Below are positions 4,256 through 49,549 of a DNA stretch of 64,000 bases, one piece after another. Within the stretch, counting starts at the first letter, position 1, and each line of letters begins with the position of its first letter. Where the stretch lies: positions 1 to 64,000 of the forward strand of contig JBNRMN010000001.1 in NCBI GenBank assembly GCA_050309605.1, given 5' to 3'. The notes below the pieces were generated by a model. That model had not been told where the DNA came from and ran no database searches. It saw nothing but the letters and a program-made list of their open reading frames with translations. Source of the stretch: Anaerohalosphaeraceae bacterium. Its GTDB lineage: Bacteria; Planctomycetota; Phycisphaerae; Sedimentisphaerales; Anaerohalosphaeraceae. Made by a program: the position numbers and the translations under genes.

Positions 4256-4313
4256 GGCGGATGGTAGGATAAAGCGGTAATTGATTCTTGTTTTTGAGTT
4301 TTATGGAGATTTT

Positions 4314-7300
4314 ATGGAAGGATTTGTACACCTTCATTTGCATACGCAATATTCCCTGTTGGACGGCGCGATTCCGGCCGAGCGCCTCTTTAACCGCTGC
4401 AAGGAGCTGGGGATGGACTCGGCGGCGATCACGGATCACGGCAATCTGTTCGGTGCGGTCGATTTTTACATCAAGGCCAAGGCCGCCGGCATCAAGCCCA
4501 TTTTGGGGATGGAGGCCTACATCGCCCCGGAGAGCCGCTTTGAACGGCAAAAAGGCGGCGGCGTCAAAGAAAACGCCTATCATCTGCTGCTGTTGGCCGA
4601 AAATCTGACCGGCTATCGCAACTTAATGAAGCTCAGCAGCTTAGGTTACATCGAGGGCTTCTATTATCGCCCGCGCATCGACAAGGAGCTGCTGGCCGAG
4701 CTGAACGAAGGGCTGATCTGCTCGACCGCCTGCATCGCCGGTGAAGTGCCGGCCGCACTCAAGCGGCATGATGTGGCCGCGGCTGAAAAAGCGGTTGATG
4801 AATATCTCAAAATTTTCGGCCCCGACCGCTTTTTTCTCGAAATTCAGCAGCACGACGGCGACGACAGTCCTCACGTTCGTCCGATGATGATTGATCTGGC
4901 CCGACGCAAAGGCGTCGGTCTGGTGGCCACCAATGATGTGCATTTCCTCAATGCCGAGGACTTCGAGGCCCACGGCGCTTTGTGCTGCATCAGCACCGGC
5001 AAAAAAATCACCGATCCGGACCGAATGGTCTATCCGCCCAGCGTCTATCTGAAAAGTCCCGACGAAATGCGCTCGATGTTTACCGATGTGCCCGAAGCGT
5101 GCGACAACACCCTGCGGATTGCCGAGCGCTGCAACGTCGAATTGGATTTGACCAGTCGCCATGCGCCGGTCTTTACACCCGACAACGGCCAAACCGCCGA
5201 GGATTATCTGCGCGATTTGGTCTATCAGGGCGCCAACAAACTGTACGGTAAAATCACCGATCCCATCCGCGAACGCATCGAGCGCGAACTGGAGGTCATT
5301 ATCGGCAAGGGCTTTGCCAGTTATTTTTTAATTGTCTGGGATGTGTGCAACTATGCCCGCGGCAACCACATCCCCGTCGGTGCCAGAGGCAGCGCCGTCG
5401 GCACGGTCGTGGGCTATTGCCTGGGCATCTGCGATGTCGATCCGATTCATTACGATTTGCTGTTTGAACGGTTTATGGACCCGGAACGAAACGAAATGCC
5501 CGATATCGACATTGACATCTGTCAGGACAGCCGCCCGCGGACGCTCGAATATGTTCGCAAAAAATACGGCCAGATCGCCCAGATCATCACCTTCGGCACG
5601 ATGAAGGCCAAGGCCGTCATCCGCGACGTCTGTCGCGTGCTGGATGTGCCGCTGGCCGAGGCCGACCGCCTGGCCAAGCTGGTGCCCAATGAACTGAAAA
5701 TGACTCTCGACAAGGCGCTTCAGGTCGAGCCGGACTTGAAAAGGGCCTACGACGAAAACGAACAGACCCGCCGCGTCATTGACATCGGTCGCCGTCTCGA
5801 AGGGCTGGCCCGTCATGCCTCGGTACACGCCTGCGGCGTTGTCATTGCCGATGAACCGCTGACCCACTTCCTGCCGCTGTACAAGCAGGCCAACTCCGAC
5901 GACATCATCACCCAGTTCGAAGGCCCGACGGTCGAAAAGGTCGGTTTGCTGAAGATGGATTTTCTGGGACTTAAGACGCTCAGCATCATCCAGCGGGCGC
6001 TGGATTTAATCAAAGACGTCCACGGCAAGACCATCGACATCGAAAAAATCGACATCACCGATCAGACCGTATTTCGCGATATCTTCGGCGCCGGCCGCAC
6101 CAAGGGGGTTTTCCAGTTTGAATCCGGCGGGATGCAGGATTTGCTGATGAAACTTCGCCCCGACCGGCTGGAAGATCTCATCGCCGCCAACGCCCTCTAT
6201 CGCCCCGGCCCGATGGCACTGATCCCCGACTACATCGACCGCAAGCACGGCGCCAAATGGGACGTGCCGCACCCGATTATGCGCGAGGTGCTTGAAGAGA
6301 CCTTCGGCATTATGGTCTATCAGGAGCAGGTGATGCGGATCTGCAATCGGCTGGGCGACATCCCGCTGCGTCAGGCCTATGCCCTGATTAAAGCCATCGG
6401 CAAAAAGAAGCTGGATGTGATTGCCGCCGAGAAGAAACGGTTTGTTGAAGGCTGTATTAAAAAAGGCCTCAAGAAACAACAGGCCGAAGAAATCTTCGAC
6501 CTGATCGAAAAATTCGCCGGCTACGGTTTTAACAAAAGCCATGCCACCCGCTACTCATTTGTCGCCTACCAGACCGCCTGGCTGAAGGCCTATTATCCGG
6601 TCGAATACATGGCCGCCTTGCTGACCTATGAAATGGGAAACACCGACAAGGTCGTCGAATACATCGGCGAATGCCGCGAGATGGGCATAGACGTGCTGCC
6701 GCCGGACATCAACGACAGTTTTGTCGATTTTACCGTCATCTATGATCGTGAGCACGGCCGACAGGACAAAAAAGGTGTTATCCGTTTCGGACTGGCCGCG
6801 GTCAAAGGCGTCGGTGAAAAGGCCGTCGAACAGATCATCGCCGCGCGGGAAAAAATCGGACGATTCAAAAATCTGTTTCATTTCTGCGAGAACGTCGATC
6901 TGCGTGCGGTCAACAAACAGGTGCTCGAAGCGCTCATCAAGGCCGGTGCGTTTGATAATCTCGGCGGAAGCCGCGCCCAGATGACGGCTGGACTGGAATC
7001 GGCGATGCAGGTCGGCGCATCAATGCAGGCCGACGCCCAGAGCGGCCAGATGAATTTCTTTGCCGCCGGTTTGGGTCAGGACGATGACAGCGCCGCGCCC
7101 GCGCTGCCCGATGTGCCCGCCTGGCCGGAAACACAGATGCTGACCTATGAAAAAGAGGTGCTCGGCTTTTATGTCACCAGCAATCCGCTCAGCAAGCATG
7201 CCGATCTGATTGACGCTTATTCGACGCTGCACACCAGTCAGCTCAGCGCCAAACACGAAGGCCGTGAAATCGTCATCGGCGGGATGATCACAAAAATCCG

Positions 7301-7778
7301 CAACATCGTCACCAAAAACGGACGCAACGCCGGCGCCAAAATGGCGGTCCTTGAACTGGAAGATTTGCAGGGCAAATGCGAGGTGGTCCTGTTTCCCAAG
7401 ACGCTCGAAAAATTCGGGCATTTAATGGAAGTGGACAAAATCGTCTTCGTCCGCGGCAAGGTCGATTGCAAACGCGAAACGCCCAATCTGCTTTGTGAAG
7501 AGCTGTACGCCCTGGAAGAGGTGACCGACAAACTGGCCGCGCGGGTCTGGATTCGCCTGCTGTCGCTGAACATCACCGAGGAAAAGATCGGCCAGATCGC
7601 CTCGCTGTGCCGAAGCCATCGCGGCAAAAGCCCCGTTCAAATCAGCCTCCAGACCGCCGGCGGATGGCGAATCATCGCCGTGGCCGACAAAAGCCTCAGC
7701 GTGCGGGCCGATGTGGATTTCTGCAGAAAAATCGGCGCCGTCGTCGGCCGTGAAAACGTCGAACTGATGCGCAACTGA
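4314..7778 (+). CDS. dnaE: DNA polymerase III subunit alpha
   Basis: PHP HLHLHTQYSLLDG and AITDHGNLFG; RGSAVG; catalytic MPDIDID; FAGYGFNKSHA; C-terminal OB fold. Confidence 0.98.
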   Translation: MEGFVHLHLHTQYSLLDGAIPAERLFNRCKELGMDSAAITDHGNLFGAVDFYIKAKAAGIKPILGMEAYIAPESRFERQKGGGVKENAYHLLLLAENLTGYRNLMKLSSLGYIEGFYYRPRIDKELLAELNEGLICSTACIAGEVPAALKRHDVAAAEKAVDEYLKIFGPDRFFLEIQQHDGDDSPHVRPMMIDLARRKGVGLVATNDVHFLNAEDFEAHGALCCISTGKKITDPDRMVYPPSVYLKSPDEMRSMFTDVPEACDNTLRIAERCNVELDLTSRHAPVFTPDNGQTAEDYLRDLVYQGANKLYGKITDPIRERIERELEVIIGKGFASYFLIVWDVCNYARGNHIPVGARGSAVGTVVGYCLGICDVDPIHYDLLFERFMDPERNEMPDIDIDICQDSRPRTLEYVRKKYGQIAQIITFGTMKAKAVIRDVCRVLDVPLAEADRLAKLVPNELKMTLDKALQVEPDLKRAYDENEQTRRVIDIGRRLEGLARHASVHACGVVIADEPLTHFLPLYKQANSDDIITQFEGPTVEKVGLLKMDFLGLKTLSIIQRALDLIKDVHGKTIDIEKIDITDQTVFRDIFGAGRTKGVFQFESGGMQDLLMKLRPDRLEDLIAANALYRPGPMALIPDYIDRKHGAKWDVPHPIMREVLEETFGIMVYQEQVMRICNRLGDIPLRQAYALIKAIGKKKLDVIAAEKKRFVEGCIKKGLKKQQAEEIFDLIEKFAGYGFNKSHATRYSFVAYQTAWLKAYYPVEYMAALLTYEMGNTDKVVEYIGECREMGIDVLPPDINDSFVDFTVIYDREHGRQDKKGVIRFGLAAVKGVGEKAVEQIIAAREKIGRFKNLFHFCENVDLRAVNKQVLEALIKAGAFDNLGGSRAQMTAGLESAMQVGASMQADAQSGQMNFFAAGLGQDDDSAAPALPDVPAWPETQMLTYEKEVLGFYVTSNPLSKHADLIDAYSTLHTSQLSAKHEGREIVIGGMITKIRNIVTKNGRNAGAKMAVLELEDLQGKCEVVLFPKTLEKFGHLMEVDKIVFVRGKVDCKRETPNLLCEELYALEEVTDKLAARVWIRLLSLNITEEKIGQIASLCRSHRGKSPVQISLQTAGGWRIIAVADKSLSVRADVDFCRKIGAVVGRENVELMRN

Positions 7779-7884
7779 AAACCCATGACGGTGTAAGTCG
7801 CAGCCTATTCCCATTATGAGTACGACAGCGAAGGTTTATAATGAATTAACATAAAACCTTTTTTAGTAATGAGTTATATTAAAT

Positions 7885-8038
7885 ATCAAAAAGCAAAATC
7901 AAAACGAATCGTTGCCAGAAAGCGTGCCCGTTCAGGCGACCTTGCCGATTTACGGCACCGATGTGGATAATCCGCCGGCACTTTGCTTTTTTTGAATTTT
8001 GATGTGTGATTTTGTATTTTGATTTTTAATCTTTGATT
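7885..8038. repeat. Inverted pair of degenerate heptamer tracts (ATCAAAA / TTTTGAT)
   Basis: atcaaaaagcaaaatcaaaa at ~7885-7904 and ttttgaattttgatgtgtgattttgtattttgatttttaatctttgat at ~7990-8037. Confidence 0.55.
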
Positions 8039-8090
8039 TCGCGACATTAACGCGGATTCTCAGCATACATTGCGCTGGAGCGGTGAGCGT

Positions 8091-8119
8091 TTGATTTTTA
8101 TCTAACTTTCTGGTATAAT
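8091..8119 (+). promoter_or_regulatory. sigma70-type promoter of the terminase-like gene
   Basis: TTGATT-17 nt-TATAAT with extended -10 TG; AAAGGAG RBS at 8217-8223. Confidence 0.7.
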
Positions 8120-8230
8120 ACCCGCCGGTTCGGGGGCGAACCGATGTGTTTGTCCTTGAAAAAGGTGTAAAAGGAGCAGTATTGCCGGCATCTTGCCGGT
8201 CAATCAACCCACACAGAAAGGAGCAGCCCG

Positions 8231-9721
8231 ATGTCAACACAAGCCGTACCCCTTGTCGATCCTACCGTTTCTGCCGCTTCGGAGGTCTGGAAGCGATTGC
8301 GTCAGCACCGGCCAACCACACGTCGGCAACTATGGCACTATATGCGAGTCTTTTTCAAGCTGTCCGTGCCGAATAGCCGCATCTGTCCGGGCCACAGCAG
8401 CCCGATGGATTATCTCTGGCACACCTACAACGCCGATTTTGCCGCCTTGCCTCCGGCCAACGGGGATTGTCTGGTCTGGGCCAATCGCGGCGGCGGCAAG
8501 ACACAGCTGGCCGCTGTCGCCACCGTGCTGGAAGGCTTGTTTAAGCCCGCCTGCCAAACCCGGATGCTGGCCGGTTCGCTTGATCAGGCCCATCGTATGT
8601 ATGATTACTTCGTTGCGTTTGTGCAATCCGGCTTTGAAGATTGTCTTGACGGCAGACTGTTGGCGCAATCCTGCCGATTCCAAAACGGCGCGACTGTCGA
8701 AGTCTTGCCGCAGTCGGCTGCGGCCATTCGCGGACGGCACATCCACAAACTCCGCTGCGACGAAATGGAACTGCTTGATGATGAGCTGCTGGCGGCGGCT
8801 CAATTTGTCACCCGCAGCGACCGCGGGCTGCACGGGGCGATGGAGATGTTCAGCACGATGCATCGTCCCTACGGCCTGATGCAGCGCCTCGTGGAACAAG
8901 CCGAGCGCATCGGTATGCCGATGTTTCGCTGGTGCGTCTGGGAAGTTATCGAACACTGTCCGCCGGAGCGAAGCTGCAGCCGCTGCCCGCTGTCTGAAGA
9001 CTGTCGCGGCGTTGCCCGTCGGGCCGACGGTTATCTGGCCATTGACGACTGCATCAGTCAAATGCGCCGTTCCAGCCGGGCGGGGTTTGAGGCCGAGATG
9101 CTTTGCCTGCGGCCCAGCCTTGAAAACGCCGTCTTTGCCGAATTTGATCCAAATGTACACGTGGCACGAGTGGACTACCAATCGACACGACCGCTGTATC
9201 GCGCGATTGATTTCGGGTTTGTCAATCCATTTGTGTGCCTTTGGATTCAGACCGATGAAGATGGCCGTGTGTTTGTGATCGATGAATATGTCCGCCGCCG
9301 CAAAACCATCGCCGAGCACGCCGCTTATATCAAGACGCACACACCCTGCGCCGAAGTGCAGGTCGCCGGCACGTTTTGCGATCCGGCAGGGGCCGGACGC
9401 AGCGACATCACCGGCACCGCCGCCGTTCACGAATTGGCCGCTGCCGGCATCCGTGCGACCTGGCGCAAAAGCCGCATCCTGGAAGGCATTGAAAAGATCC
9501 GCGTGGCGCTGCGCAGCGGAGACGGAACCCGCCGCCTGATCATCGCGCCGCGCTGTGCGCGCCTGATCGAGGCGCTGCGGTGCTACCATTATCCGGCGGT
9601 CCATACCGGCCTAACGGAACTGCCCGAAAAAGACGGTCTGTATGATCATCCCATCGACGCGCTGCGCTATTTCTTCGTCAATATCGCCCGTGCCGCGCCG
9701 CCTCACAGGAGCCGCTACTAA
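8231..9721 (+). CDS. Phage-type terminase large subunit (ATPase plus RNase H-like nuclease), solitary
   Basis: Walker A WANRGGGKT; FQNGATVEV..AIRG; Walker B LRCDEM; motif III FST; nuclease AIDFGFVNPF, VIDEY, FCDPAG, DHPIDALRY. Confidence 0.88.
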   Translation: MSTQAVPLVDPTVSAASEVWKRLRQHRPTTRRQLWHYMRVFFKLSVPNSRICPGHSSPMDYLWHTYNADFAALPPANGDCLVWANRGGGKTQLAAVATVLEGLFKPACQTRMLAGSLDQAHRMYDYFVAFVQSGFEDCLDGRLLAQSCRFQNGATVEVLPQSAAAIRGRHIHKLRCDEMELLDDELLAAAQFVTRSDRGLHGAMEMFSTMHRPYGLMQRLVEQAERIGMPMFRWCVWEVIEHCPPERSCSRCPLSEDCRGVARRADGYLAIDDCISQMRRSSRAGFEAEMLCLRPSLENAVFAEFDPNVHVARVDYQSTRPLYRAIDFGFVNPFVCLWIQTDEDGRVFVIDEYVRRRKTIAEHAAYIKTHTPCAEVQVAGTFCDPAGAGRSDITGTAAVHELAAAGIRATWRKSRILEGIEKIRVALRSGDGTRRLIIAPRCARLIEALRCYHYPAVHTGLTELPEKDGLYDHPIDALRYFFVNIARAAPPHRSRY

Positions 9722-9771
9722 GAACAAGCCAACCGGCCTGTTCGGTGTGTTAACAGGGCAAGTCCCGTTGT

Positions 9772-10293
9772 TTACATCATAAACGGATCGTAAAAGAACG
9801 GATCCAGCGGCAGGGATTCAATCTCATCCAATGCCTCCGGATAGCTGAACTTCAAGACCGTCGGCTTGGCCAGACGTTTGTAGTCGGCCATGGCCATCCG
9901 AATGGCTCGGTCGTGGCTGCCGGCGCAAAAGACAATCTCCTTGTCTTTGGCAAGGCTTTTGTCCATCAGCGTCGGCAGATTGTACAGCTCGCCGAACGGC
10001 GGCTCGGCCCCAACTTCGGCATCGGCAAACAGCGACTCCATCTCGCTTTCGGTGGCCAGACGCACGTGCCGCACCTCAAGATGCTGCTGAAGCGCATACA
10101 GACTGACCTTGCGGTCGGCCGGCAGGACACACAGATAAAAGCGGTCGTTGTCAGCTCGCACAACCACCGTCTTGGCGACCTGCTGCGGCGGGACGTGCTC
10201 GACGGTCGCCAACTGTCCGGCGGTATAAACCGGTTCATGCTCGCTGACCTGAAACGCACATCCTCGGCCGCTGAGATACTCCTGAACGTTCAT
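9772..10293 (-). CDS. YbaK/EbsC-family aminoacyl-tRNA deacylase
   Basis: VAKTVVV, RLATESE, EVGAEPPFGELY, AGSH motifs. Confidence 0.88.
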   Translation of the reverse strand: MNVQEYLSGRGCAFQVSEHEPVYTAGQLATVEHVPPQQVAKTVVVRADNDRFYLCVLPADRKVSLYALQQHLEVRHVRLATESEMESLFADAEVGAEPPFGELYNLPTLMDKSLAKDKEIVFCAGSHDRAIRMAMADYKRLAKPTVLKFSYPEALDEIESLPLDPFFYDPFMM

Positions 10294-10364
10294 AGACAAA
10301 TCTCCCGTCAGTTAAGTATTTTATAGCCATTTGACCTCCTGCCGCTCAACGCTGCACGCTGTGC

Positions 10365-10586
10365 TTACAGCATATAAGGATACAGCGGGTAACCGTAGGG
10401 CGGCGGGGTCATTCCATTATCCGGTTTTACCAGAAAACTGAGAATCAGCATCAGCGCGACCAATGCCGTGATCACCAGCGCAGCCCAAAACCGTGGATCG
10501 TGGACCAGCCGGCGAAGGTGCAGGCTCAAGGTGTGCCGGTCGGGCCAGTGCCAATGCCGTAAATGAATTCCATGCATCGTCATCAT
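10365..10586 (-). CDS. Small single-pass membrane protein (~73 aa)
   Basis: GAAAGG RBS; His-rich N-terminus, one hydrophobic helix (FWAALVITALVALMLILSFLV), Pro/Tyr-rich tail; same strand and directly upstream of the ybaK-like gene. Confidence 0.6.
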   Translation of the reverse strand: MMTMHGIHLRHWHWPDRHTLSLHLRRLVHDPRFWAALVITALVALMLILSFLVKPDNGMTPPPYGYPLYPYML

Positions 10587-10679
10587 CCGACCTTTCAACT
10601 GAACTGCTTTTCGTAACTCGTATTTTATACTACGTCTGAGAAAAAGGCAAGTTGGTGTTTTCTCCGGGAAAAACAGACA

Positions 10680-10708
10680 TTGCCTGGCAGGACGTTCAAT
10701 GGTATAAT
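10680..10708 (+). promoter_or_regulatory. sigma70-type promoter of tyrS
   Basis: TTGCCT-17 nt-TATAAT with extended -10 TG. Confidence 0.7.
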
Positions 10709-10748
10709 CCGGTCTTTTACTAATGTATATAGTTTTGGATGGACAATT

Positions 10749-11960
10749 ATGACTTTGGAAATTGCCGAACAAGTCAAACTGCTCAAACGCGGCACGGTGG
10801 AGGTGTATCGCGAAGATGAACTGGCCCAGCGACTGACTGAGGCCGCCCAGGCGGGCCGGCCGCTGCGGGCCAAACTCGGAATGGATCCGACCGCGCCGGA
10901 CATTCACCTCGGTCATACCGTCGTTCTTCGCAAGCTGCGTCAGTTTCAGGATTTAGGACACAAGGCCGTGCTGATTATCGGCGACTATACCGCCCGCATC
11001 GGCGATCCGACCGGACAGAACACCACCCGTCCTATGCTTACATCCGAGCAAATCAAGGCTAATGCCCAGACCTATTTCGAGCAGGCCGGTAAGGTGCTGG
11101 ATATGTCCCCGGACAAGGTCGAGGTGCGGTACAACAGCGAATGGCTGGCGGACTTACGGCTGGCCGATGTGATTAAGCTGACCGCCTCAATGACGGTGGC
11201 CCGAATGCTCGAGCGCGACACGTTTGATCTGCGATACAAAAAGGGCGACCCGATTGGAATTCACGAGTTTTTGTATCCGTTAATGCAGGGTCAGGATTCG
11301 GTCGCAATTCAAAGCGATGTGGAGCTGGGCGGTACGGACCAGACCTTTAATAATCTGGTAGGGCGGGACTTGCAGCGTTTGGCTGGTCAGCCGCCGCAGA
11401 TTGTCATTACGATGCCGATTCTCGTCGGGCTGGACGGCGTACAGAAGATGAGCAAATCCAAGGGCAATTACATCGGCGTCACCGATTCGCCCTCGCAGAT
11501 GTTCGGCAAGACCATGAGCATCCCCGATGGGCTGATGGAAAACTACTTTACCTTGCTGACCGATGTGCCGGTTGAGCAGATTAAGACCTGGGTGGACCCG
11601 GCTCAAACCCACCCCAGGCAGGCCAAAGTCATTCTGGGCAAGTTGATTGTCGAGCAGTTTTACGACAAAGAAGCTGCCGAAGCCGCCGCGGCGGAATTTG
11701 ATAAGGTCTTTGCCCAAAACCAGTTGCCTGACCAGATGCCCGAAGTGGCCGTTTCGTCCGCCCCGATTCCCGCGGCCAAGCTGCTGCTGCATTGCGGATT
11801 GGTCCAAACCGGCGGCGAGGCCAAACGCATTATCAAGCAGGGCGGCGTGCGGATCGATAATGTGAAAATCGATGATCCGAGTCGTGAAGTGAACCCTCAG
11901 GACGGGATGGTCGTACAGGTAGGCAAGCGCAAGTTTGCGAAATTAAAGTTGACAGTGTAA
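10749..11960 (+). CDS. tyrS: Tyrosine--tRNA ligase
   Basis: GMDPTAPDIHLGH (HIGH-type), ELGGTDQTFN, KMSKS, C-terminal S4 domain. Confidence 0.97.
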   Translation: MTLEIAEQVKLLKRGTVEVYREDELAQRLTEAAQAGRPLRAKLGMDPTAPDIHLGHTVVLRKLRQFQDLGHKAVLIIGDYTARIGDPTGQNTTRPMLTSEQIKANAQTYFEQAGKVLDMSPDKVEVRYNSEWLADLRLADVIKLTASMTVARMLERDTFDLRYKKGDPIGIHEFLYPLMQGQDSVAIQSDVELGGTDQTFNNLVGRDLQRLAGQPPQIVITMPILVGLDGVQKMSKSKGNYIGVTDSPSQMFGKTMSIPDGLMENYFTLLTDVPVEQIKTWVDPAQTHPRQAKVILGKLIVEQFYDKEAAEAAAAEFDKVFAQNQLPDQMPEVAVSSAPIPAAKLLLHCGLVQTGGEAKRIIKQGGVRIDNVKIDDPSREVNPQDGMVVQVGKRKFAKLKLTV

Positions 11961-28118: not shown

Positions 28119-28366
28119 GACGCGGCACAACAGCGCGGTACAACAGCGCGGCCGCGCAAGCGGCCCGATAGGCGATGCGGATACGCCAAACGCTTTTCGA
28201 GGCGTAGTATTATCCGGCTCACTTGCGCCGCTCGGCTGTTGTGCGACGACGCAAAGGCGCGGCGCAATAGCGCGGCCGCGCAAGCGGCCCGATAAGCGAT
28301 GTGGATAGATGGGGCGTATTTCCAAGACGCCAGATGATCCGGCTCACTTGCGCGGCTCGGCTGCTG
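28119..28366 (+). repeat. REP/BIME-like repeat cluster (locus 2)
   Basis: About two units of the element tandemly arrayed at 40317-40883. Confidence 0.8.
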
Positions 28367-28386
28367 TGCGTGGATAATGGGGTATT

Positions 28387-40282: not shown

Positions 40283-40316
40283 AATCAGGCTTTGGACGGC
40301 CGGGTTGTCGGAATTT

Positions 40317-40950
40317 ATCCGGCTCACTTGCGCCGCTCGGCTATTGTACGATGACGCAACGCACCAGCGCGCGCAATAGCGCGGCACAACAGCGCGGCCG
40401 CGCAAGCGGCCCGATAAGCGATGCGGATGTACCGGGACGTTTTCCAAGACGCCACATGATCCGGCGGCTCGCGCCGCTCGGCTATTGTACGATGACGCAA
40501 CGCACCAGCGCGCGCAATAGCGCGGCACAACAGCGCGGCCGCGCGAGCGGCCCGATAAGCGATGCGGATATACCGGGACGTTTTCCAAGACGCCCGATTA
40601 TCCGGCTCACTTGCGCCGCTCGGCTATTGTACGATGACGCAACGCACCAGCGCGCGCAATAGCGCGGCACAACAGCGCGGCCGCGCAAGCGGCCCGATAA
40701 GCGATGCGGATATACCGGGGCGTTTTTCCAAGACGCCCGATGATCCGGCGGCTCGCGCCGCTCGGCTATTGTACGATGACGCAACGCACCAGCGCGCGCA
40801 ACAGCGCGGCACATCAGCGCGGCCGCGCGAGCGGCCCGATATGGGATACGGATAGATGGGACGTTTTTCCAAGACGCCCGATTATCCGGCCGCTTGCGCG
40901 GCTCGGCTATTGTTACGTATCGCCATCCGGCTCACTTGCGCGGCTCGGCT
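40317..40950 (+). repeat. Tandem array of four ~142-bp hairpin units plus two partial motifs (REP/BIME-like, locus 3)
   Basis: ATCCGGC unit starts at 40317, 40459, 40600, 40743, 40884 and 40925. Confidence 0.92.
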
Positions 40951-41122
40951 GGTGTTTGGGTGGGGGCTGGTGTGGTGAACAGACAGTGTTCAGAATCCTT
41001 GCGCCGGTTGGGCATCGCACGAGGGGGGCTGTTCGGTCATTTTGTGAAGATTTCCGCATTTTTAGCCGCATAAATCAACATTTTGCCTGTTTGACTTTTT
41101 GATTTCACACGGCAATCCCGTA

Positions 41123-41636: not shown

Positions 41637-42044
41637 ATGCGTGTGGAATCAGGGATGTTCGGAACAATCGATATTGCGGTGTCGGGGCTTCGTGCCTCGA
41701 ACAAGCAGATGGAAGTGGTCGGCTCGAATATCGCCAACATTCAGACGACCGACGCGGGCGACGGCCGGCCGTACCGCCGGCTGATTGCCGAATTCAAAAC
41801 CCCTAAGGACGGCCCCGGCGGGGTTGAAGTGTCGGACATTATTCAGGATATGAGCGATTTTCAGCGGGTCCTTAATCCGGGTCATCCGGCGGCGGACGAA
41901 AACGGGTACGTGGCCATGCCGAACGTGGATTGGCCGACTGAGATGATCACGCTGAATCTGGCCAGCCGTACCTATCAGGCCAATGCGGCTATTTTGAAAC
42001 GCTATCAAAAAATGGTGGAATCGAGTCTGGAACTTTTGAGATAA
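41637..42044 (+). CDS. flgC: Flagellar basal-body rod protein FlgC
   Basis: NIANIQTT…PYRR, PGHPAADENGYVAMPNV, ASRTYQAN. Confidence 0.93.
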   Translation: MRVESGMFGTIDIAVSGLRASNKQMEVVGSNIANIQTTDAGDGRPYRRLIAEFKTPKDGPGGVEVSDIIQDMSDFQRVLNPGHPAADENGYVAMPNVDWPTEMITLNLASRTYQANAAILKRYQKMVESSLELLR

Positions 42045-42054
42045 GGATATCGCA

Positions 42055-42366
42055 ATGACGGTTCAGTTTAATCCTCAACTCAACAGCGTGTACGGCGCCG
42101 GACAGGCGTCGTTTACGCCTCGACCCCACGAGGGCGGCCCGTCGCAGGGCGACTTTGCCAAGGCGATCAAACAATCTCTGGACAACGTCAATCAGGATCA
42201 GCACGAGGCCAATGCGTCCATCGTGGATTTGCTCAGCGGCAAGGAGCAGGATGTCAATACGGTGGTGGCCAGTGTGGCCAAAGCGGATATGAGCTTCAAA
42301 ATGCTGGTCGGTGTCCGCAACAAGCTGGTGGAAGCCTATAAAGAAACGATGCGAATGCAGATTTAG
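42055..42366 (+). CDS. fliE: Hook-basal body complex protein FliE
   Basis: KADMSF…VRNKLVEAYKETMRMQI. Confidence 0.93.
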   Translation: MTVQFNPQLNSVYGAGQASFTPRPHEGGPSQGDFAKAIKQSLDNVNQDQHEANASIVDLLSGKEQDVNTVVASVAKADMSFKMLVGVRNKLVEAYKETMRMQI

Positions 42367-42420
42367 GCCGGAAAACGACAAGTCAGCGATTTGACAGGAA
42401 CGGGTTGGCCTGGTTAACAC

Positions 42421-43950
42421 ATGGGATTTTTTCAGAACATTAACGCGGTCTGGCAGAAAATCGGTTTGATGCAGCGTGCGCTGCTGGCGGCGATTGTGCT
42501 GGCCTGTGTGATTACGGGCGTTCTGCTGACCCAGTGGGCGACGCGGCCGGAGATGCGCATGCTGTACGGCAATCTGGACATTGAGGAATCGTCGCGCATC
42601 GCCGAGAAGCTCAGCGAAAGCAATGTCCCTTATGAAATCCGAAACGAGGGGCGCAACCTGTTTGTACCGGCCAACCAGCTTTATACCCTTCGTGCGTCGC
42701 TGGCGCGGGACGGGCTGGTCCCGCGCAGCGGGGAGCCGGGATATGAAATCTTTGACAATGAGAAAATCGGCGTCAGCCCGTTGGTGCAGCGAATGAACTA
42801 CAACCGTGCCCTGCAGGGAGAACTGGCCAAGACGATTCAGGTCTTCGACGGCGTCGAATTTGCGCGGGTGCATATCGTGCGTCCGGAACAAACGATGTTT
42901 ACGACCGACGGGGAAAAAGCCAGCGCGTCGGTGATGGTGCGTCTTCGTCCGGGCTTTCAGCTCAGTGCGACGACCATCACGGCGATACAAAATCTGGTTG
43001 CCGGGGCGGTTGAGGGGCTGGGGCCGGAACAGGTGACCCTGGCCGACAGTCAGGGGCGGATGCTGAACAATCGCAACCACAGCGACCCGGTAGTCGGCGG
43101 CGCTTCGACCTACAAAGATTACAAAGCGTCGGTCGAACAGGATATGACCGACCGGCTGATGCGTTCGCTCGAGACGGTGCTGGGCGCGGGACGCGCGACG
43201 GTTATTACCAATGTGATGCTGGATATGACCCAGGAAACCATGGTCAGCACGACCTATGAAAAAGGGATTCCTCTGGAAGAGACCATCGACGAGACCTCAA
43301 CGACTCAGGACGGACTGACCGATGAAGAAGGGCGCGTCACGGCGCCGGGCAGTATGGAGCGCACCGGCAGTACAGTCAGTAAGTATAAATTGCCCGAAAC
43401 TCGGACCACCCGCACGACGGTGCCGGGGCGGATTACCGGATGGTCGATTTCGGTCGTGGCGGATTTAAGCCGGCCGGCGCCGAAGGCCGACAGCGAGGAC
43501 GATGTGCCGAGCGGTGCGGCGGATTTGCTGATGACCGAGGACGATGTCAAACAGATTGTGCGTACCGCGATCGGGCCGGAACTGCTCAAAGAAGAACATT
43601 TGACGGTCAAGCATGTGCCGTTTGTGCGGGCTGTGCCGATGGCGCAGGAATCGGGCTTGTGGGTGGAACAGTTGGATCGCTATATGGATCTGGTGCGGCA
43701 GTCGTCGCTGGGAGTGATGGCCGTCTGCGCTCTGCTGGCGCTGAAGATTGTCACGCGTGCAGGAGCCAAGGCGGCGTCCGAAAATGCTGCGGCAAATCAA
43801 CTGGCCGGCGCCGGCGCCCTGGCCCCGCTGCCGTCCGCATCGGACGAGGAGATATTAAAGACGATTCGGCAGCAAATCAATACGCAACTCCGTGAGAATC
43901 CCGAACAGGTGCGGCAGTTGTTCGCGTCATGGTTGACGGAGGATCGGTAA
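42421..43950 (+). CDS. fliF: MS-ring protein FliF
   Basis: TM helix; GYEIFD, RALQGELAKTI, ARVHIV, ASASVMV, LVAGAVEGL; C-terminal NPEQV…WL. Confidence 0.92.
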   Translation: MGFFQNINAVWQKIGLMQRALLAAIVLACVITGVLLTQWATRPEMRMLYGNLDIEESSRIAEKLSESNVPYEIRNEGRNLFVPANQLYTLRASLARDGLVPRSGEPGYEIFDNEKIGVSPLVQRMNYNRALQGELAKTIQVFDGVEFARVHIVRPEQTMFTTDGEKASASVMVRLRPGFQLSATTITAIQNLVAGAVEGLGPEQVTLADSQGRMLNNRNHSDPVVGGASTYKDYKASVEQDMTDRLMRSLETVLGAGRATVITNVMLDMTQETMVSTTYEKGIPLEETIDETSTTQDGLTDEEGRVTAPGSMERTGSTVSKYKLPETRTTRTTVPGRITGWSISVVADLSRPAPKADSEDDVPSGAADLLMTEDDVKQIVRTAIGPELLKEEHLTVKHVPFVRAVPMAQESGLWVEQLDRYMDLVRQSSLGVMAVCALLALKIVTRAGAKAASENAAANQLAGAGALAPLPSASDEEILKTIRQQINTQLRENPEQVRQLFASWLTEDR

Positions 43951-44970
43951 ATGGCGTTTAAGGGAATACAAAAGGCGGCGATGCTGTTGACGATGCTGGA
44001 TTCGTCCACCGCGACGGAATTGCTAAGAGATGTGCCCCAGGAAGTGATTCAAAAAATCGCCATGGAATTATCGCATCTGGATGCGCGAAAAGAAAAAGAC
44101 GACGATCTGTTTATTCATGCAGCGCGTGAATTCTATAATGAACTGATGAAGAGCCAAAGCGGATCACTGCATGTCAAAAGTTTTGTCAACTCGCTGCTTC
44201 AGGGAGCGGTGGGGACGAAAGAAAAGGCCGTCGAGATGCAAAAGCGGATCAAAGAAGCAATGATCGAAAAAGATCCGTTTTTGGCGTTGTCATCGGCTTC
44301 GCCGATTCAATTGGCTGCGGCGCTGGAAGATGAGCCGCCTCAGGCGATTGCGGTGGTGCTCTCGTCGCTTCCGTCGAAGCTGACGACCGAGGTGCTGGTG
44401 CGTCTGGACGAGGACAAATGCCGACAGACGATCTGGCGGATGACACAGCCGAATGATGTGTCGTCGAAAACCATACGCCGGATCGGCGAGGTGGTCTGTA
44501 AACGGCTGATGGAGATGAACTCCGAAGAGGGGACGCCGGTCAATGAAAATATGTCAAGAGATTCACTCCGTCGGGTGGCCATTGTGTTGAGCGGACTGGA
44601 AAAAGAGAGACGCGACGCACTGCTCGGAGTCATCCAGGATCGCGACAGCGATACCGCGACGCTGGTGCGTTCGCTGATGGTCACGTGGGATGATATTATC
44701 AAGATTGAAGACCGATCATTGCAGCAGACGCTGCGCAGCGTTGAGCCGACGGTGCTGGCCAAGGCGCTGCACGGCGCCGAAACGATCATCCGGGACAAGA
44801 TTATGTCCAATATTTCCGAACGAATGAAGGAAATGATCGAAGAAGAGGCTTCACTGATGGGCGAACCGCGCAAGAAAGATGTGATCGCCGCGCGGGAACA
44901 GGTGGCGCTGCCGCTTCGGGAAGCCAATGAAACGGGCGAGTTGTTGTTCATTGAGGAGGAGGAAGTTTAG
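43951..44970 (+). CDS. fliG: Rotor protein FliG
   Basis: GIQKAAMLL; EPPQ in place of EHPQ; DRSLQ; NISER…EEE…R torque helix. Confidence 0.9.
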   Translation: MAFKGIQKAAMLLTMLDSSTATELLRDVPQEVIQKIAMELSHLDARKEKDDDLFIHAAREFYNELMKSQSGSLHVKSFVNSLLQGAVGTKEKAVEMQKRIKEAMIEKDPFLALSSASPIQLAAALEDEPPQAIAVVLSSLPSKLTTEVLVRLDEDKCRQTIWRMTQPNDVSSKTIRRIGEVVCKRLMEMNSEEGTPVNENMSRDSLRRVAIVLSGLEKERRDALLGVIQDRDSDTATLVRSLMVTWDDIIKIEDRSLQQTLRSVEPTVLAKALHGAETIIRDKIMSNISERMKEMIEEEASLMGEPRKKDVIAAREQVALPLREANETGELLFIEEEEV

Positions 44971-44973
44971 ACG

Positions 44974-45528
44974 ATGCCGCGCGATACGCTGTTCACCATC
45001 CAGGCGCCTGTTCGCTCCGTTGAACTGCTGGACAGGCGGCAGATCGAAGAGGCCGCCCGCCGGAAAGCGGCGGCTGCTCGGACGGAGCAGGCCCGCCGTC
45101 AACTGGAACAGGCCTGCGGCGCGTTGAGCAAAGCGGCGATGGAACTGGACGCGTATTGTGCGTCTCTGTTTGCCTCGCAGCAAGAGCAGATTGTCCGATT
45201 CAGTCTTGAGATTGCGGCGCGGGTGCTGGCCAAGGAGACGGCCGAGAGAAACTACGCCGTCGAAAAAATCGTGACCGAGGCGCTGCAGTCGGCGCCGCCG
45301 GCCAAACAATTGACGATTCGGTTAAACCCCGATGACGTGAAGGCATTTGAACAGGCCGCCGGCGAACAGGGGTTCGGTCTTCCGCCGAATGTGGAACTGG
45401 CCGCGGATTGGTCGGTCAATCCGGCCGAGTGCCGTATTGACAGTGAACTGGGAATCGTCGAATCGATGATTGAAGATCGATTGCGGCAAATCGAGCAGGC
45501 TTTGCTCGGATCGGAGCCGTCCGAATAA
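44974..45528 (+). CDS. fliH: FliH/SctL-family protein (short, 184 aa)
   Basis: IRLNPDD, CRIDSELGIV; lies between fliG and fliI. Confidence 0.8.
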   Translation: MPRDTLFTIQAPVRSVELLDRRQIEEAARRKAAAARTEQARRQLEQACGALSKAAMELDAYCASLFASQQEQIVRFSLEIAARVLAKETAERNYAVEKIVTEALQSAPPAKQLTIRLNPDDVKAFEQAAGEQGFGLPPNVELAADWSVNPAECRIDSELGIVESMIEDRLRQIEQALLGSEPSE

Positions 45529-45531
45529 GCG

Positions 45532-46923
45532 ATGAAATCATCCGGCGTACAAATTGATTTTGAGCCGTTTTACGCGGCGCTGAAGCAGACGCCGCTGGTG
45601 CGGCACCGCGGTGTGGTCACGCATGTCAGCGGCCTGACGGTTGAAAGCAGCGGTCCGAATGTGGGACTGGGCCAGCTCTGTCAAATCACACTGCACGACG
45701 GAAGGCACGTCCAGGCCGAGGTCATTGGTTTTCGTCGGGGGGAGTTGATTTTGCTGCCGCTGGATGCGGTGGACGGGATTCGTCCGGGCGATACGGTCAC
45801 GGCGCTGAATCAGCCCCGCCGGGTGGCGCTGGATGAACGCATTATCGGTCGCGTTCTGGACGGCCTGGGCAATCCGATTGACGAACGCGGGCCGCTGAAA
45901 GGTCGTGTGATGCGCCCGATAGACAACGTCAGCCCCGCCCCGCTGGGCCGTGAGATGATTCGTGAGCCGCTGCCGCTGGGGATTCGGGCGATTGACGGAC
46001 TGCTGACCTGCGGCAAAGGACAGCGGATGGGGGTGTTTTCCGGCAGCGGGGTGGGCAAGAGCGTGCTGCTGGGCGAGATTGCCAACGGCAGTGATGCCGA
46101 TGTGAATGTGGTGGCGCTGGTCGGCGAGCGGGGGCGCGAGGTGCGGGAGTTTCTGGAAAAAGATCTCGGCCCGGAAGGGGTCGCGCGGAGCGTCATCGTC
46201 GTGGCCACGTCGGATGCGGCGGCCATTCAGCGGGTCAAGGCGGCGTTTGTGGCGGCGACGATTGCCGAGTATTTTCGCGACCAGGGCAAGGACGTGCTGT
46301 TTATGATGGATTCGCTGACGCGACTGGCTCAGGCGCAGCGCGAGGTGGGGCTTGCGGCCGGCGAGCCGCCGGCGACCAAAGGATATTGTCCGAGCGTCTT
46401 TGCGCTGCTGCCGAGGCTGGTTGAGCGGCTCGGATGCAATGAGCGCGGCAGCATCACGGGCATTTTAACGGTGCTGGCCGAAGGGGACGACCTGAACGAC
46501 CCGGTCGCCGACAGTGCCCGGTCGCTGCTGGACGGCCATATCGTGCTGTCGCGCAAGCTGGCCGACCGCGGGCATTATCCGGCGATTGACATCCTGCAAA
46601 GCGTCAGCCGGCTGATGAATACGGTCGCGACGCCGGCGCATCGCCGGGCGGCGCTGGCGCTGCGGGAGATTTATGCGATTTATGCGGATGCGGAGGATTT
46701 GATTTCAATCGGCGCGTTCGTGCCGGGCAGCAATAAGCGCATTGACGGTGCGGTGGCGCTGATTGAGCGGATTCGGCAATTTCTGATTCAGCCGATACGC
46801 CGGCGCAGCTCGTTTGATGAGACGATCAGACAGCTTGAAAGCATTGTGCAGGCATGGAATGACTTGTTGGGAATGCCGCGCTCCGGGGCGAACGACAGCG
46901 CCGGTCCGGTGCAGCAGGCATAA
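45532..46923 (+). CDS. fliI: Export ATPase FliI
   Basis: GSGVGKS, ALVGERGREV, MDSLTRLAQAQREVGL, GEPP, LDGHIVLSR. Confidence 0.96.
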   Translation: MKSSGVQIDFEPFYAALKQTPLVRHRGVVTHVSGLTVESSGPNVGLGQLCQITLHDGRHVQAEVIGFRRGELILLPLDAVDGIRPGDTVTALNQPRRVALDERIIGRVLDGLGNPIDERGPLKGRVMRPIDNVSPAPLGREMIREPLPLGIRAIDGLLTCGKGQRMGVFSGSGVGKSVLLGEIANGSDADVNVVALVGERGREVREFLEKDLGPEGVARSVIVVATSDAAAIQRVKAAFVAATIAEYFRDQGKDVLFMMDSLTRLAQAQREVGLAAGEPPATKGYCPSVFALLPRLVERLGCNERGSITGILTVLAEGDDLNDPVADSARSLLDGHIVLSRKLADRGHYPAIDILQSVSRLMNTVATPAHRRAALALREIYAIYADAEDLISIGAFVPGSNKRIDGAVALIERIRQFLIQPIRRRSSFDETIRQLESIVQAWNDLLGMPRSGANDSAGPVQQA

Positions 46924-46935
46924 GGACGGGCGGCG

Positions 46936-47388
46936 ATGCAAAAGTTCAGATGGCGACTGCAGCGGCTGCTGGATGTGCGGCAAAAACAGCAAGACGCTCT
47001 GCGAGCCGAGTTGATTGCGTTGACTGAACAGACGACGGCACTGCGGGGGCGAATCCTGATGGAAAAAGCGATGCTCCGCAGCCGATTGAGCGAATTGCGG
47101 GCACTGGAGCCGGATCGACGGCTCAGCCGACAGCAGGAATTTATGACGTATGTGTCGGCGGTGGACGGCCGGCTCGCGGCGCTGGGGCGGAAATTGAGCG
47201 AGTTGGAACAGAAACGAAAGGAAAAAGTCGAGGCCATGACGGCGGCACGAAAGAGCCGTAAGGTGCTCGAACGTCTTCGAGAGCGCGCGATGGAGGCATA
47301 CGACCGCCGCGTTCACGCGGAAGAACGCACTGCCGAAGACGAGAGTACCCAGGCCGCCGTTGCCCGACGCATTTTGGGATTGAGTTAA
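46936..47388 (+). CDS. fliJ: Export protein FliJ
   Basis: FRWRLQRLLDVR, coiled coil, KVLERLRE; follows fliI. Confidence 0.82.
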   Translation: MQKFRWRLQRLLDVRQKQQDALRAELIALTEQTTALRGRILMEKAMLRSRLSELRALEPDRRLSRQQEFMTYVSAVDGRLAALGRKLSELEQKRKEKVEAMTAARKSRKVLERLRERAMEAYDRRVHAEERTAEDESTQAAVARRILGLS

Positions 47389-47422
47389 CGACAGCCGTTT
47401 TATAAACGGAGGTACCGAACGT

Positions 47423-48118
47423 ATGAAAAAGTATCAGATTATCGTGATGGTTGCGCTGGGCGCGTTCAGTTTTGCGGCCAGTTTTGGATTGAACTGGTTC
47501 AGAAAGCAGAAAGCCGCTGATGCCGCCGTCCTGCCGCAGGACCCGCCGACCTCCGAGACGACCGCCGGTCCGAGCGCTCAGCGCGCCGCCTTGGCCCCGG
47601 AAATATCCACTCGGTACGGGCCGCAGGACATCGATGAACAGATGGGGCTGACCGAACGGCAATTGCAGCACTTGATTTATGATGTGCGCGAGAAAATGAA
47701 CGAATACAATCGACGAGAAAGGGAACTGGCCGAGGAAGCGGCGCGGCTTGAGCTGGTACGGCAAAGCCTTCAGGAGGACATTGAGCAACTCAACGAACTG
47801 CGCGAAACACTGGATATGAAGCTGGCGGCGATCAACGAAAAAGAGGAGCAAATCCGCAACACCCTCATTGCCGTTGAAGAGGTTGAGCGGGTCAATCTTG
47901 AGCGCCTTGGAGCGACTTACGACAAAATGGACGCCGTCCAGGCCGGCACAATAATGGTGAATATGGCGGCCAACAATCAGCTTCAGGATGTGGTCAAGAT
48001 TCTGTACTATATGAATGAACGGAATGCCGCTCGTGTGCTGGGCCAGATCGGTTCGACGCGGCCGGAAGTGGCCAGTGTGCTGAGCCTGCAGCTTAAACGG
48101 GTGCAGGAAGGAGAATAA
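47423..48118 (+). CDS. MotE/FlbB-like membrane-anchored coiled-coil protein
   Basis: N-terminal anchor, coiled coil, YDKMDAVQAG…MNERNAARVL (MgtE_N-like). Confidence 0.7.
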   Translation: MKKYQIIVMVALGAFSFAASFGLNWFRKQKAADAAVLPQDPPTSETTAGPSAQRAALAPEISTRYGPQDIDEQMGLTERQLQHLIYDVREKMNEYNRRERELAEEAARLELVRQSLQEDIEQLNELRETLDMKLAAINEKEEQIRNTLIAVEEVERVNLERLGATYDKMDAVQAGTIMVNMAANNQLQDVVKILYYMNERNAARVLGQIGSTRPEVASVLSLQLKRVQEGE

Positions 48119-48122
48119 TACG

Positions 48123-48893: not shown

Positions 48894-49549
48894 TGGCACA
48901 GCGTTCGCGAAAAAAATCCGATGACGAGGCCGGCGGCGCACCGGACTGGATGGTGACATTTTGTGATTGTATGACGCTGCTGCTGACGTTTTTCGTGCTG
49001 CTGCTGAGTTTTGCGACCTTCCATAAGGAGACCATGCCGAAATTGGGGTTGTCGTTTGCTCAGTCGCTTCCGGCCATCGGATTATCGCAAAGCGACCAAA
49101 AGGATTCGATGTGGGAAAAAATGAGCAGCGATGAAACCGTCCGGCAGACGGAAGGCAGCGAGACGCGAACGCCCGATTCACGGCAAAGCGGCAATTTTAT
49201 GCGGGAAAAGCGAGCGCTGGATTTTCGCAATCTGAAGGTGTTTTCGGTGTCTTCGGAGACCTTTTTCTGGGGGCGCGGCGCGGCGATTTCCAACCGGGGC
49301 ATCGAGGTTCTCGATGCGCTGGCGGTCTTTCTTCGACATCAGCCGGCGCGGGTCGTCATCAGCGAAAACGGCCCGGACGGCAATGTGGAACTGGGGCTAA
49401 GGCGAGCCGCGGCGGTGATGGACTATCTGGTCGAGCAGCAGGGACTGGATCAGCGGTATTTCAGCCTGACGGCATCGAGCACAATGCGTGAAAAAAGCCC
49501 GCATCGTCAGCTTGAAATCACGCTGCTGGACAGGAGCCTTTACGAATGA
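48893..49549 (+). CDS. motB: Stator protein MotB-like (copy 1)
   Basis: WMVTFCDCMTLLLTFFVLL with conserved Asp; divergent OmpA-like domain. Confidence 0.85.
   Translation: MAQRSRKKSDDEAGGAPDWMVTFCDCMTLLLTFFVLLLSFATFHKETMPKLGLSFAQSLPAIGLSQSDQKDSMWEKMSSDETVRQTEGSETRTPDSRQSGNFMREKRALDFRNLKVFSVSSETFFWGRGAAISNRGIEVLDALAVFLRHQPARVVISENGPDGNVELGLRRAAAVMDYLVEQQGLDQRYFSLTASSTMREKSPHRQLEITLLDRSLYE

Follow-up and report, generated by a model that had tools for sequence, protein, structure and literature searches.

Unlinked chromosomal terminase of an Anaerohalosphaeraceae bacterium as the probable packaging motor of a dispersed system resembling gene transfer agents

The DNA analysed here, called the window, is a stretch of 64,000 nucleotides from an Anaerohalosphaeraceae bacterium of the Planctomycetota (GenBank assembly GCA_050309605.1, contig JBNRMN010000001.1, positions 1 to 64,000 of the forward strand), and its subject is a chromosomal gene for a terminase large subunit (TerL). 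We consider this TerL to be, with a probability of about 0.65, the packaging motor of a domesticated, dispersed particle system which resembles gene transfer agents (GTAs). The window's own genome (G000) measures 3.4 Mb in 97 contigs at 99.7% completeness, with the window on contig C1, and holds a phage-derived gene set with loci on contigs C1, C33, C43 and C95. For comparison, 41 order-level genomes, 151 class genomes (an even sample over 26 families) and 201 phylum genomes were used.

The gene and its parts are located as follows in the window.
8231..9721, plus strand: TerL gene, 496 aa, ATG start; N-terminal helical extension, ASCE (additional strand, conserved glutamate) ATPase, Cys4 insert and RNase H-like nuclease
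8486..8503, plus strand: Walker A, R86-GGGK-T91; R86, K90 and T91 invariant in 33/33 representatives and 37/37 chromosomal orthologues
8759..8764, plus strand: Walker B and catalytic D177-E178, invariant in the alignment
8957..9004, plus strand: Cys4 cluster C243-x5-C249-x2-C252-x5-C258 between ATPase and nuclease, invariant in 33/33
9203..9682, plus strand: nuclease domain (Terminase_6C) with the acidic triad D327, D384, D476, from Pfam, the alignment and a PDB profile match

TerL residues 325-484 match Pfam Terminase_6C (PF17289; 1.9e-7, 31.6 bits against a cut-off of 22.6), and six PHROG terminase-large-subunit families match the protein, with phrog_2 as the best (2.1e-18, residues 86-487). 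Terminase_6N stayed below threshold, with no match in the window's TerL and 19.2 bits against a cut-off of 22 in the orthologue of G037, and an NCBIfam search gave no relevant family. A sequence profile search of the PDB returned the nuclease domain of the D6E TerL (5oe8) at 1e-20. The AlphaFold model, built on 33 relatives, reached a predicted local distance difference test score (pLDDT) of 91 and a predicted template-modelling score (pTM) of 0.84; Foldseek aligned it with whole phage TerLs, namely those of D6E (8e-19), T4 gp17 (9e-14), HK97 (5e-11) and Sf6 gp2. Its ATPase fold matches T4 gp17 and P74-26, and the nuclease domain of P22 gp2 was aligned with a template-modelling score of 0.75 (normalised to the target) and a root-mean-square deviation of 3.3. 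The two-domain fold and the ATPase and nuclease motifs are the same as in the TerLs of D6E (PDB 5oe8/5oea), T4 (gp17), HK97, Sf6 (gp2) and P22 (gp2), from which the protein differs by its low identity (15-16%), its N-terminal helical extension of about 70 residues, and a gene that is chromosomal, unlinked and inherited with the host.

Motifs were assessed in an alignment of 33 family representatives, 30-82% identical to the query. S208/T209 (coupling motif) and the nuclease residue D327 are invariant, and D384, H473 and D476 are retained by 90% or more of the representatives; all 15 motif residues checked are present in 37/37 chromosomal orthologues. The protein thus has both the ASCE ATPase with Walker A, Walker B and coupling motif, and the RNase H-like nuclease with acidic triad, that characterise TerLs. 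The Cys4 cluster, presumed to be a metal site, occurs also in 19 of 21 distinct IMG/VR relatives aligned, and therefore belongs to this TerL subfamily as such and did not arise by domestication. A reading of the window from its letters and open reading frames (ORFs), the sequence-only reading, had described a full-length TerL with intact ATPase and nuclease motifs and host-like composition; families, model and alignment confirm the former, and the G+C content at third codon positions the latter (0.68 for TerL, 0.677 for tyrS, 0.714 for dnaE). In some orthologues (G042:C107, G066:C81, G118:C56) TerL matches in two to three in-frame pieces within open frames of 560-720 aa, and such orthologues carry insertions between the TerL domains.

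Partner genes are found on other contigs of the same genome, with coordinates given for G000.
C33:287099-288547, plus strand: portal, SPP1-type (PF05133, 4.8e-14; phrog_64, 1.9e-22)
C33:288585-289142, plus strand: scaffold-like gene (PF06810, 5.4e-6, below its cut-off)
C33:289236-290468, plus strand: major capsid gene, SU10-type (PF17236, 6.4e-89; phrog_1328, 1.4e-83)
C33, after the capsid gene, plus strand: three genes of 226, 81 and 214 aa without assignable function
C33:292276-293025, plus strand: GNAT-like gene, just downstream of the head genes
C43:3449-3892: protein with two helix-turn-helix (HTH) motifs (hmmsearch, 7.7e-17)
C43:5099-5881: ABC-type ATPase
C43:5896-6171: protein resembling terminase small subunits (TerS-like; 6.9e-13)
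C95:12435-13211, minus strand: homologue of cI/LexA-like repressors, 58% identical to repressors linked to the helper operon described below

The description of TerL as solitary consequently holds within the window and fails for the genome, where its partners lie on other contigs. A search for unlinked portal, capsid and tail genes, as the sequence-only reading had proposed, was successful for portal, scaffold-like and capsid genes, and unsuccessful for tail families, with three Pfam families tried.

Gene neighbourhoods were fetched at +/-8 kb around 20 TerL orthologues. Many of these loci share, upstream of TerL and on the same strand, a set of helper genes: the two-HTH protein (about 140 aa with two HTHs resembling sigma-70 region 4; phrog_11138), the ABC-type ATPase and the GNAT-like protein, which are sometimes fused (phrog_11143), and a helical protein of about 145 aa; rpiB is sometimes among them. 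The ATPase/GNAT cluster lies at most 8 kb from TerL in 14 of the 20 loci, and in 7 of the 20 the helper operon is neighboured by a gene for a protein of about 260 aa that combines an XRE-type HTH with S24 motifs (GDSM...FKRV, identified by eye). The order portal, scaffold-like gene, capsid gene, gene for a protein of about 218 aa is kept in 17 of 21 loci. By Pfam, no integrase or replication gene stands beside the head cluster or the helper locus, where some neighbouring ORFs have no family. For the 226-aa protein after the capsid gene, the ESM Atlas returned unnamed planctomycete and viral clusters, and a Mu Gp36 row at rank 18 (score 0.93) that serves as a lead only.

Two further candidates from this genome were rejected. 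An ORF of 239 aa that precedes the portal gene results from translation of a dispersed repeat whose unit measures 127 bp. The repeat is present there in 2.2 tandem copies (L042:2475-2760, equal to G000:C33:286474-286759) and has copies on at least nine contigs, including one next to the repressor gene on C95 and, in the window, at about 40302-40956 and at 28261-28368. The other candidate, a PF05065 capsid gene (G000:C2:44202-45551), was dismissed as the capsid of the system as it belongs to a patchy, multi-copy Mu-like remnant; it is the single PF05065 gene of G000, is present in 15 of 41 relatives, and was not found in the close relative G002. The remnant (G000:C2:39266-45551, L044:5267-11552) comprises an HTH_3 repressor gene on the minus strand, a MuA-type transposase (DDE_2, HTH_Tnp_Mu_2), an AAA_22/TniB-type ATPase, an S78 prohead protease and the PF05065 capsid gene, and the last 65 or so residues of its capsid protein match a separate ORF in relatives.

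The helical protein of about 145 aa is the TerS-like protein. In L009 and L014, 17-20 nt separate its gene from the TerL gene that follows; in most of 15 other genomes with a match to its hidden Markov model, it is on the same strand as TerL and no more than about 2 kb away. The structural model (pLDDT 82.6) consists of a three-helix HTH, a long helix (47-84), a disordered linker and a C-terminal helix, a layout which matches the small-terminase architecture described in passages of PMC11841831. Foldseek returned nothing significant for this model; in VIA-align, small terminases occupy four of the top six rows (SF6 G1P 5.2, Sf6 5.1, NV1 4.9, E217 4.7) and the phage protein 2ao9 is listed with Z 6.3, all below the caution line of the tool. 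Taken from the model, the assignment as a small terminase is suggestive. In G000, G006 and G002 the protein matches a 143-aa relative only from residue 52/53 (genes G000:C43:5896-6171, G006:C330:633-887 and G002:C69:1684-1881), while the N-terminal HTH region of about 50 residues is kept by relatives, including the congener G001. In the GTA field, loss of the TerS HTH is tied to a switch from packaging specific for phage DNA to packaging of any host DNA, and the loss in G000, G006 and G002 may be a parallel to this switch.

TerL is single-copy in its own genome and occurs, likewise as one copy, in 38 of 41 order-level genomes (E <= 0.001) at 50-95% identity, the best matches being nearly all full-length and none containing a stop; the three genomes without a match are 71%, 95% and 76% complete. 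Of the 151 class genomes, 102 have a match at E <= 0.001 and 94, with a single copy, have one at E <= 1e-30; TerL is found across 17 of the 26 sampled families. Families f11 (0/9), f20 (0/4) and f23 (0/7) are without TerL, and f12 is mixed (8/21). At the level of the phylum, 28 of 201 genomes match at E <= 1e-10, with strong matches outside the class in three (G264, G232 and G279). A search of 5.8 billion proteins gave 1,856 TerL matches; the 120 listed are all annotated 'hypothetical protein' and stem from bins of Sedimentisphaerales, Phycisphaerae or Planctomycetota, and a library of 50%-identity representatives contains 392 TerL clusters at E <= 1e-30.

The portal gene was detected in 34 of the 41 order-level genomes (48-85% identity for full-length matches) and in 92 of the 151 class genomes. 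Both genes are present in 88 class genomes, TerL only in 6, portal only in 4 and neither in 53, counts that are descriptive, as related genomes are not independent. Identity to G000 is correlated between TerL and portal (Spearman 0.70, n=28), and more weakly with that of TyrS (0.38 for TerL, n=30; 0.67 for portal, n=24).

Selection was estimated by the Nei-Gojobori method as the ratio of nonsynonymous to synonymous substitution rates (dN/dS) from 28 unsaturated pairs, 8 further pairs being saturated. The ratio is 0.095 for G000 and G006 (dN 0.023, dS 0.246), 0.091 for G000 and G002, and 0.09-0.36 over the 28 pairs. For the phylogeny, a quick IQ-TREE run included 37 chromosomal and 10 full-length IMG/VR TerLs, one row per fetched locus with a full-length ORF, and left out L021-L023 (duplicates of L003, L005 and L011) and split viral ORFs. 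The 37 chromosomal genes fall on one side of a branch with a Shimodaira-Hasegawa-like approximate likelihood ratio (SH-aLRT) support of 94, opposite to the 10 viral sequences, and the window's order forms one clade with a support of 95. Host-family labels need 10 changes on the tree, which is the minimum possible and was equalled in 0 of 200 shuffles; family f1 needs three changes, and no starred branch forces more than one. The system is inherited vertically across a class of the Planctomycetota; the top protein matches are named Sedimentisphaerales or Phycisphaerae. Domestication of TerL is upheld by its single copy, its vertical descent, the purifying selection on it and its position outside the viral clade. 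The checks on inheritance and selection that had been suggested gave the expected outcome, with single-copy orthologues, a tree that follows host families and a dN/dS of about 0.09; marks of a prophage remnant, namely patchiness in close relatives, nesting among phage TerLs and relaxed selection, were looked for and none was seen.

The arrangement of the genes differs between lineages. In G114 (family f14), TerL (870008-871426) is directly followed by the portal gene (871795-873174), while in complete genomes of the window's order the two are 41 kb (G160), 169 kb (G016), 690 kb (G037) and 980 kb (G031) apart; since the genes are contiguous in G114 and spread in the window's order, the dispersal is derived. 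G000, G006 and G002, in which TerL stands next to dnaE, are the extreme of this dispersal.

The region upstream of TerL carries the following elements.
8091..8119, plus strand: sigma-70-type promoter-like site, TTGATT-17-TATAAT with TG extended -10, 10/12 positions
8126..8143, plus strand: stem-loop of 7 bp, CGGTTCG GGGG CGAACCG, at the predicted 5' end of the transcript; one change in G006
8217..8226, plus strand: ribosome-binding site AAAGGAGCAG, AAAGGAG-type, ending 5 nt before the ATG
8089..8106, strand not assigned: operator-like palindrome GTTTGATTTTTATCTAAC, with 2 mismatches to GTTAGATANNTATCTAAC (14/16 specified positions), overlapping the -35 box and the spacer

The 3.1-kb TerL region contains seven promoter-like sites, compared to 1.8 +/- 1.7 in shuffles, and a TTGnnn-16/17-TATAAT site precedes TerL in all six genus members (read by eye), whose upstream genes differ. 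The near-consensus sigma70 promoter and strong ribosome-binding site noted by the sequence-only reading are both there, at 10/12 positions and with AAAGGAGCAG 5 nt before the ATG. A second, identical AAAGGAGCAG is found in the TerL leader at 8170-8179, 47 nt from the first, and the same motif also precedes the ATPase gene on C43. An Rfam scan of 7700-8300 returned nothing but an STnc150 row below the threshold (19.3 bits, with 60 required).

The palindrome connects this promoter with the helper operon. Its perfect form GTTAGATATTTATCTAAC is located at C43:3367-3384, 64 nt upstream of the two-HTH gene and just after a promoter-like site, and this copy and the one at the TerL promoter are the only two sites with up to 2 mismatches in the 3.4 Mb of G000. 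With up to 3 mismatches there are nine sites, one of them about 10 nt upstream of the repressor start; shuffles give 1-2 per Mb. In G031 (family f8) a perfect palindrome lies 51 nt upstream of the HTH gene, in G038 (family f2) one with 1 mismatch lies between the helper operon and a divergent repressor gene, and in G001 and G002 the palindrome heads the helper operon on the contigs holding their TerS-like genes. The five genus genomes searched have 1-3 sites each, against 0-1 for a reversed control pattern. At TerL itself, G006 has a copy identical to that of the window, 141 nt upstream of its TerL, and G002 has a version with 3 mismatches at the TerL promoter; in G001, G003 and G005 no palindrome with up to 3 mismatches precedes TerL. 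The characterisation of the promoter as housekeeping-type is not supported: with a palindrome common to the helper operon overlapping the -35 box and spacer, the promoter is probably repressed. From the distribution of these sites, the relocated TerL would still be co-regulated with the helper operon by a protein binding the palindrome, most simply the putative cI/LexA-like repressor, and the two-HTH protein, which resembles sigma region 4 and Q proteins, is a candidate activator of the head genes.

Relatives of the helper and terminase genes exist in viruses. A phage database contains no close TerL, with 596 matching records of which none covers >=80% of the query and listed identities of at most 31%. 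IMG/VR provided 64 loci with TerL relatives at 24-42% identity, which form a separate group in the tree; three long loci were examined and carry replication, ParB, RusA and HNH genes together with a TerL split into ATPase and nuclease ORFs. Among the 64 loci, close homologues of other components were limited to GNAT on L094 and the capsid gene on L112. Many TerL ORFs of viral contigs (L066-L129) stop near query residue 311, leaving an ATPase-only ORF of about 300 aa, with nuclease-domain ORFs elsewhere on the contig or matched parts 450-570 nt further apart than expected (for L074, 9977-10873, 3728-4258 and 7252-7725); the TerL gene is thus split or interrupted in many viral relatives. In Pseudomonas phage nickie (MG018927.1), an ATPase annotated as 'ABC transporter' shares 30-32% identity with the helper ATPase and is encoded a few genes ahead of TerL and portal (order: ParB, ParB, ATPase, four hypothetical genes, TerL, portal). 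With such kin of the ATPase upstream of TerL in real phages, the helper module is ancestral phage equipment. PHROG families match the helper ATPase/GNAT (phrog_11143) and the HTH protein (phrog_11138). Phages such as nickie are complete, mobile genomes of 112 kb, whereas here the module is fixed in the host and broken up.

We propose the following course of events. One ancient prophage would have been the ancestor, its genes first contiguous in the order cI/LexA-like repressor; two-HTH protein, ABC-type ATPase, GNAT, TerS-like protein and TerL; portal, scaffold, SU10-type capsid and several small proteins. In the window's lineage this set would have been broken into at least four loci, with TerL left alone between dnaE and ybaK. 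In the present cell, the repressor would bind GTTAGATATTTATCTAAC at the helper-operon promoter and the near-copy over the -35 box of TerL; repression would then be lifted, possibly by RecA-stimulated self-cleavage of the S24-type repressor, upon which TerL, the TerS-like protein, the helpers and the head proteins would all be made. TerL would dock on portal-bearing procapsids, cut DNA and pump in a headful, and the product would be host-made, DNA-filled capsids akin to GTAs, which may deliver their DNA to other cells.

According to passages of PMC11841831, the genes of a GTA usually occupy several loci separated by hundreds of kb, some of which contain one or two genes only. The set described here is like the GTAs of Rhodobacter capsulatus (RcGTA) and Caulobacter (CcGTA) in comprising head and packaging genes of phage origin and, as judged by Pfam, none for replication or integration, in being vertically inherited under purifying selection, and in occupying several distant loci. 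CcGTA is under the control of a host-type repressor, RogA, and of GafYZ, and a similar, repressor-type regulation is suggested here by the putative cI/LexA-like repressor. It is unlike RcGTA and CcGTA in showing no family-level homology, in having no recognised tail genes (three Pfam families) and in its host phylum. The RcGTA capsid belongs to PF05065, whereas the conserved capsid gene here is SU10-type (PF17236), and no PF05065 gene is part of the conserved cluster. Literature searches, which did not extend to subscription journals and supplements, yielded no publication about terminases, GTAs or domesticated capsid systems of Phycisphaerae or Planctomycetes. It is possible, and we hold this only tentatively, that the genes constitute an undescribed and independently evolved GTA-like (or tail-borrowing) capsid system of the Phycisphaerae under an SOS-type repressor, which has been dismantled in the window's lineage and yet is kept as one regulon by TerL's own operator copy, with an HTH-less TerS-like protein in G000, G006 and G002. 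As for the earlier suggestion of a domesticated motor in a dispersed GTA-like system, the unlinked phage-derived set supports the dispersed motor, while the GTA-like function stays inferential.

Several observations weigh against this interpretation. As TerL and portal are both missing from 53 of the 151 class genomes, the system is dispensable. Three tail families tried in Pfam (Phage_sheath_1, PhageMin_Tail, Baseplate_J) were not found in G000; a lysis gene was not identified either, and the small genes downstream of the capsid gene have no assignable function. There is no palindrome with up to 3 mismatches near the head cluster of G000, and no promoter motif links this cluster to the TerL operator. 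Contigs from RNA libraries touch only the 3' part of TerL (X15, 9006-9426 and 9406-10609; X20, 9471-9624; the 5' two-thirds uncovered, for assembled contigs only) and could be DNA carry-over or read-through from ybaK. The TerS-like protein keeps its HTH in most relatives, which would fit sequence-specific over random packaging. To our knowledge, neither the ABC ATPase and GNAT helpers nor the two-HTH protein occur in any described GTA. Particles, packaged DNA and transfer are predictions of the proposal.

The alternative that survives best, although unlikely, is a role in defence or tail piracy, in which tail-less, DNA-filled heads would be made upon phage attack or DNA damage and would sequester or degrade DNA or borrow the tails of phages. 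The set would then be a domesticated, immobile counterpart of capsid-forming satellites such as the capsid-forming phage-inducible chromosomal islands (cf-PICI), which encode their own capsid, portal and terminase and no tail. The presence of head and packaging genes, with tail genes not found by the three families, is consistent with such a role, as is a control that resembles a cI/LexA-type repressor. The absence of a tail is not established, however, since three to six conserved genes without an assigned function follow the capsid gene. Moreover, satellites of the cf-PICI kind are contiguous, integrase-bearing, mobile and patchy, whereas this set is dispersed, has no integrase at the loci examined and follows the host phylogeny; the combination of contiguity, integrase or replication genes and patchy occurrence that marks a prophage or satellite was not found.

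An unusual autonomous virus, or a cryptic prophage co-diverging with its host, whose genome is split over several chromosomal sites, is improbable. All core head and packaging genes are intact, and related TerLs do lie on genuine phage- or plasmid-like IMG/VR contigs with replication genes. Against it, no integrase or replication gene adjoins TerL or, by Pfam, the head cluster and the helper locus. Distances between the loci reach 980 kb in complete genomes, and the TerL tree is in keeping with host families, its chromosomal clade standing apart from viral contigs. Except for the GNAT and capsid genes mentioned, the 64 viral loci lack close homologues of the other components.

Also not supported is the suggestion, raised by the sequence-only reading, of a co-opted DNA-processing enzyme, that is, a TerL acting without a capsid as an ATP-dependent nuclease or translocase, for instance in repair or chromosome processing; we regard it as very improbable. 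The position next to dnaE in G000, G006 and G002 and the strong promoter of its own would suit such an enzyme. This linkage is confined to the three close genomes, however, and TerL occurs together with portal in 88 of the 98 class genomes with either gene, many relatives have a TerS-like gene immediately before TerL, and the TerL promoter shares its operator-like palindrome with the packaging helper operon. Lastly, a decaying prophage remnant that by chance is still intact, for which the lack of adjacent phage genes in the window might speak, is already contradicted by a dN/dS of about 0.09, by 15 motif residues kept in 37/37 orthologues, by the occurrence in 17 of 26 sampled class families and by best order-level matches without stops, and can hardly be maintained.

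The immediate surroundings of TerL in the window are as follows.
4281-7778: dnaE, upstream of TerL
9772-10299, minus strand: ybaK-type tRNA_edit gene, downstream of TerL
10680-11960: tyrS, downstream of TerL

A scan of 50 window ORFs for phage families (E <= 1e-5) gave none, with 16 of the 50 ORFs without any family, and no integrase or replication gene was found beside TerL; the placement between dnaE and ybaK/tyrS, without another phage gene in the 64 kb, was thus described correctly. Small terminase and portal genes do not adjoin TerL in the window. Among genus members, TerL adjoins dnaE in G000, G006 and G002 only and has other neighbours in G001, G003 and G005. The stretch between dnaE and TerL contains 24-nt inverted repeats (7878-7901 and 8007-8030, 88% complementary) that flank a 105-nt core richer in G+C. 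In the soil-metagenome run X1, one contig has 2,290 different nucleotides in place of exactly 7787-8085, up to 5 nt before the -35 box of TerL; 7787-8085 is a variable cassette or insertion site. Further downstream, the window holds a flagellar cluster (41637-52908) with rod proteins, FliE, FliF, FliG, FliH, a FliI-type ATPase, two MotB-like genes, FliP and FliR. For TyrS, three genomes of family f2 (G025, G032 and G038) show 27-29% identity, compared to 65-96% in all other order members, and by this measure carry a different TyrS type.

Few lineages are known to have GTAs, which are difficult to detect, for their genes resemble prophage debris and can be scattered. The packaging system proposed here offers a class-wide case in the Planctomycetota, with evolutionary stages that lead from a contiguous, prophage-like arrangement (G114) to complete dispersal (G000), and a concrete regulatory link in the form of one palindrome at two unlinked promoters. 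What the window newly contributes is the fully dispersed state, the operator-like copy at the promoter of the relocated TerL, and the HTH-less TerS-like protein in the same sub-clade. For genome annotators and prophage finders, the case is of use in showing that a 'lone' terminase may be just the exposed part of a dispersed system. If particles were confirmed, the system would provide a natural experiment on the loss of a TerS domain and packaging specificity, and would mean a further route of gene exchange or a means of defence for a phylum in which neither has been characterised.

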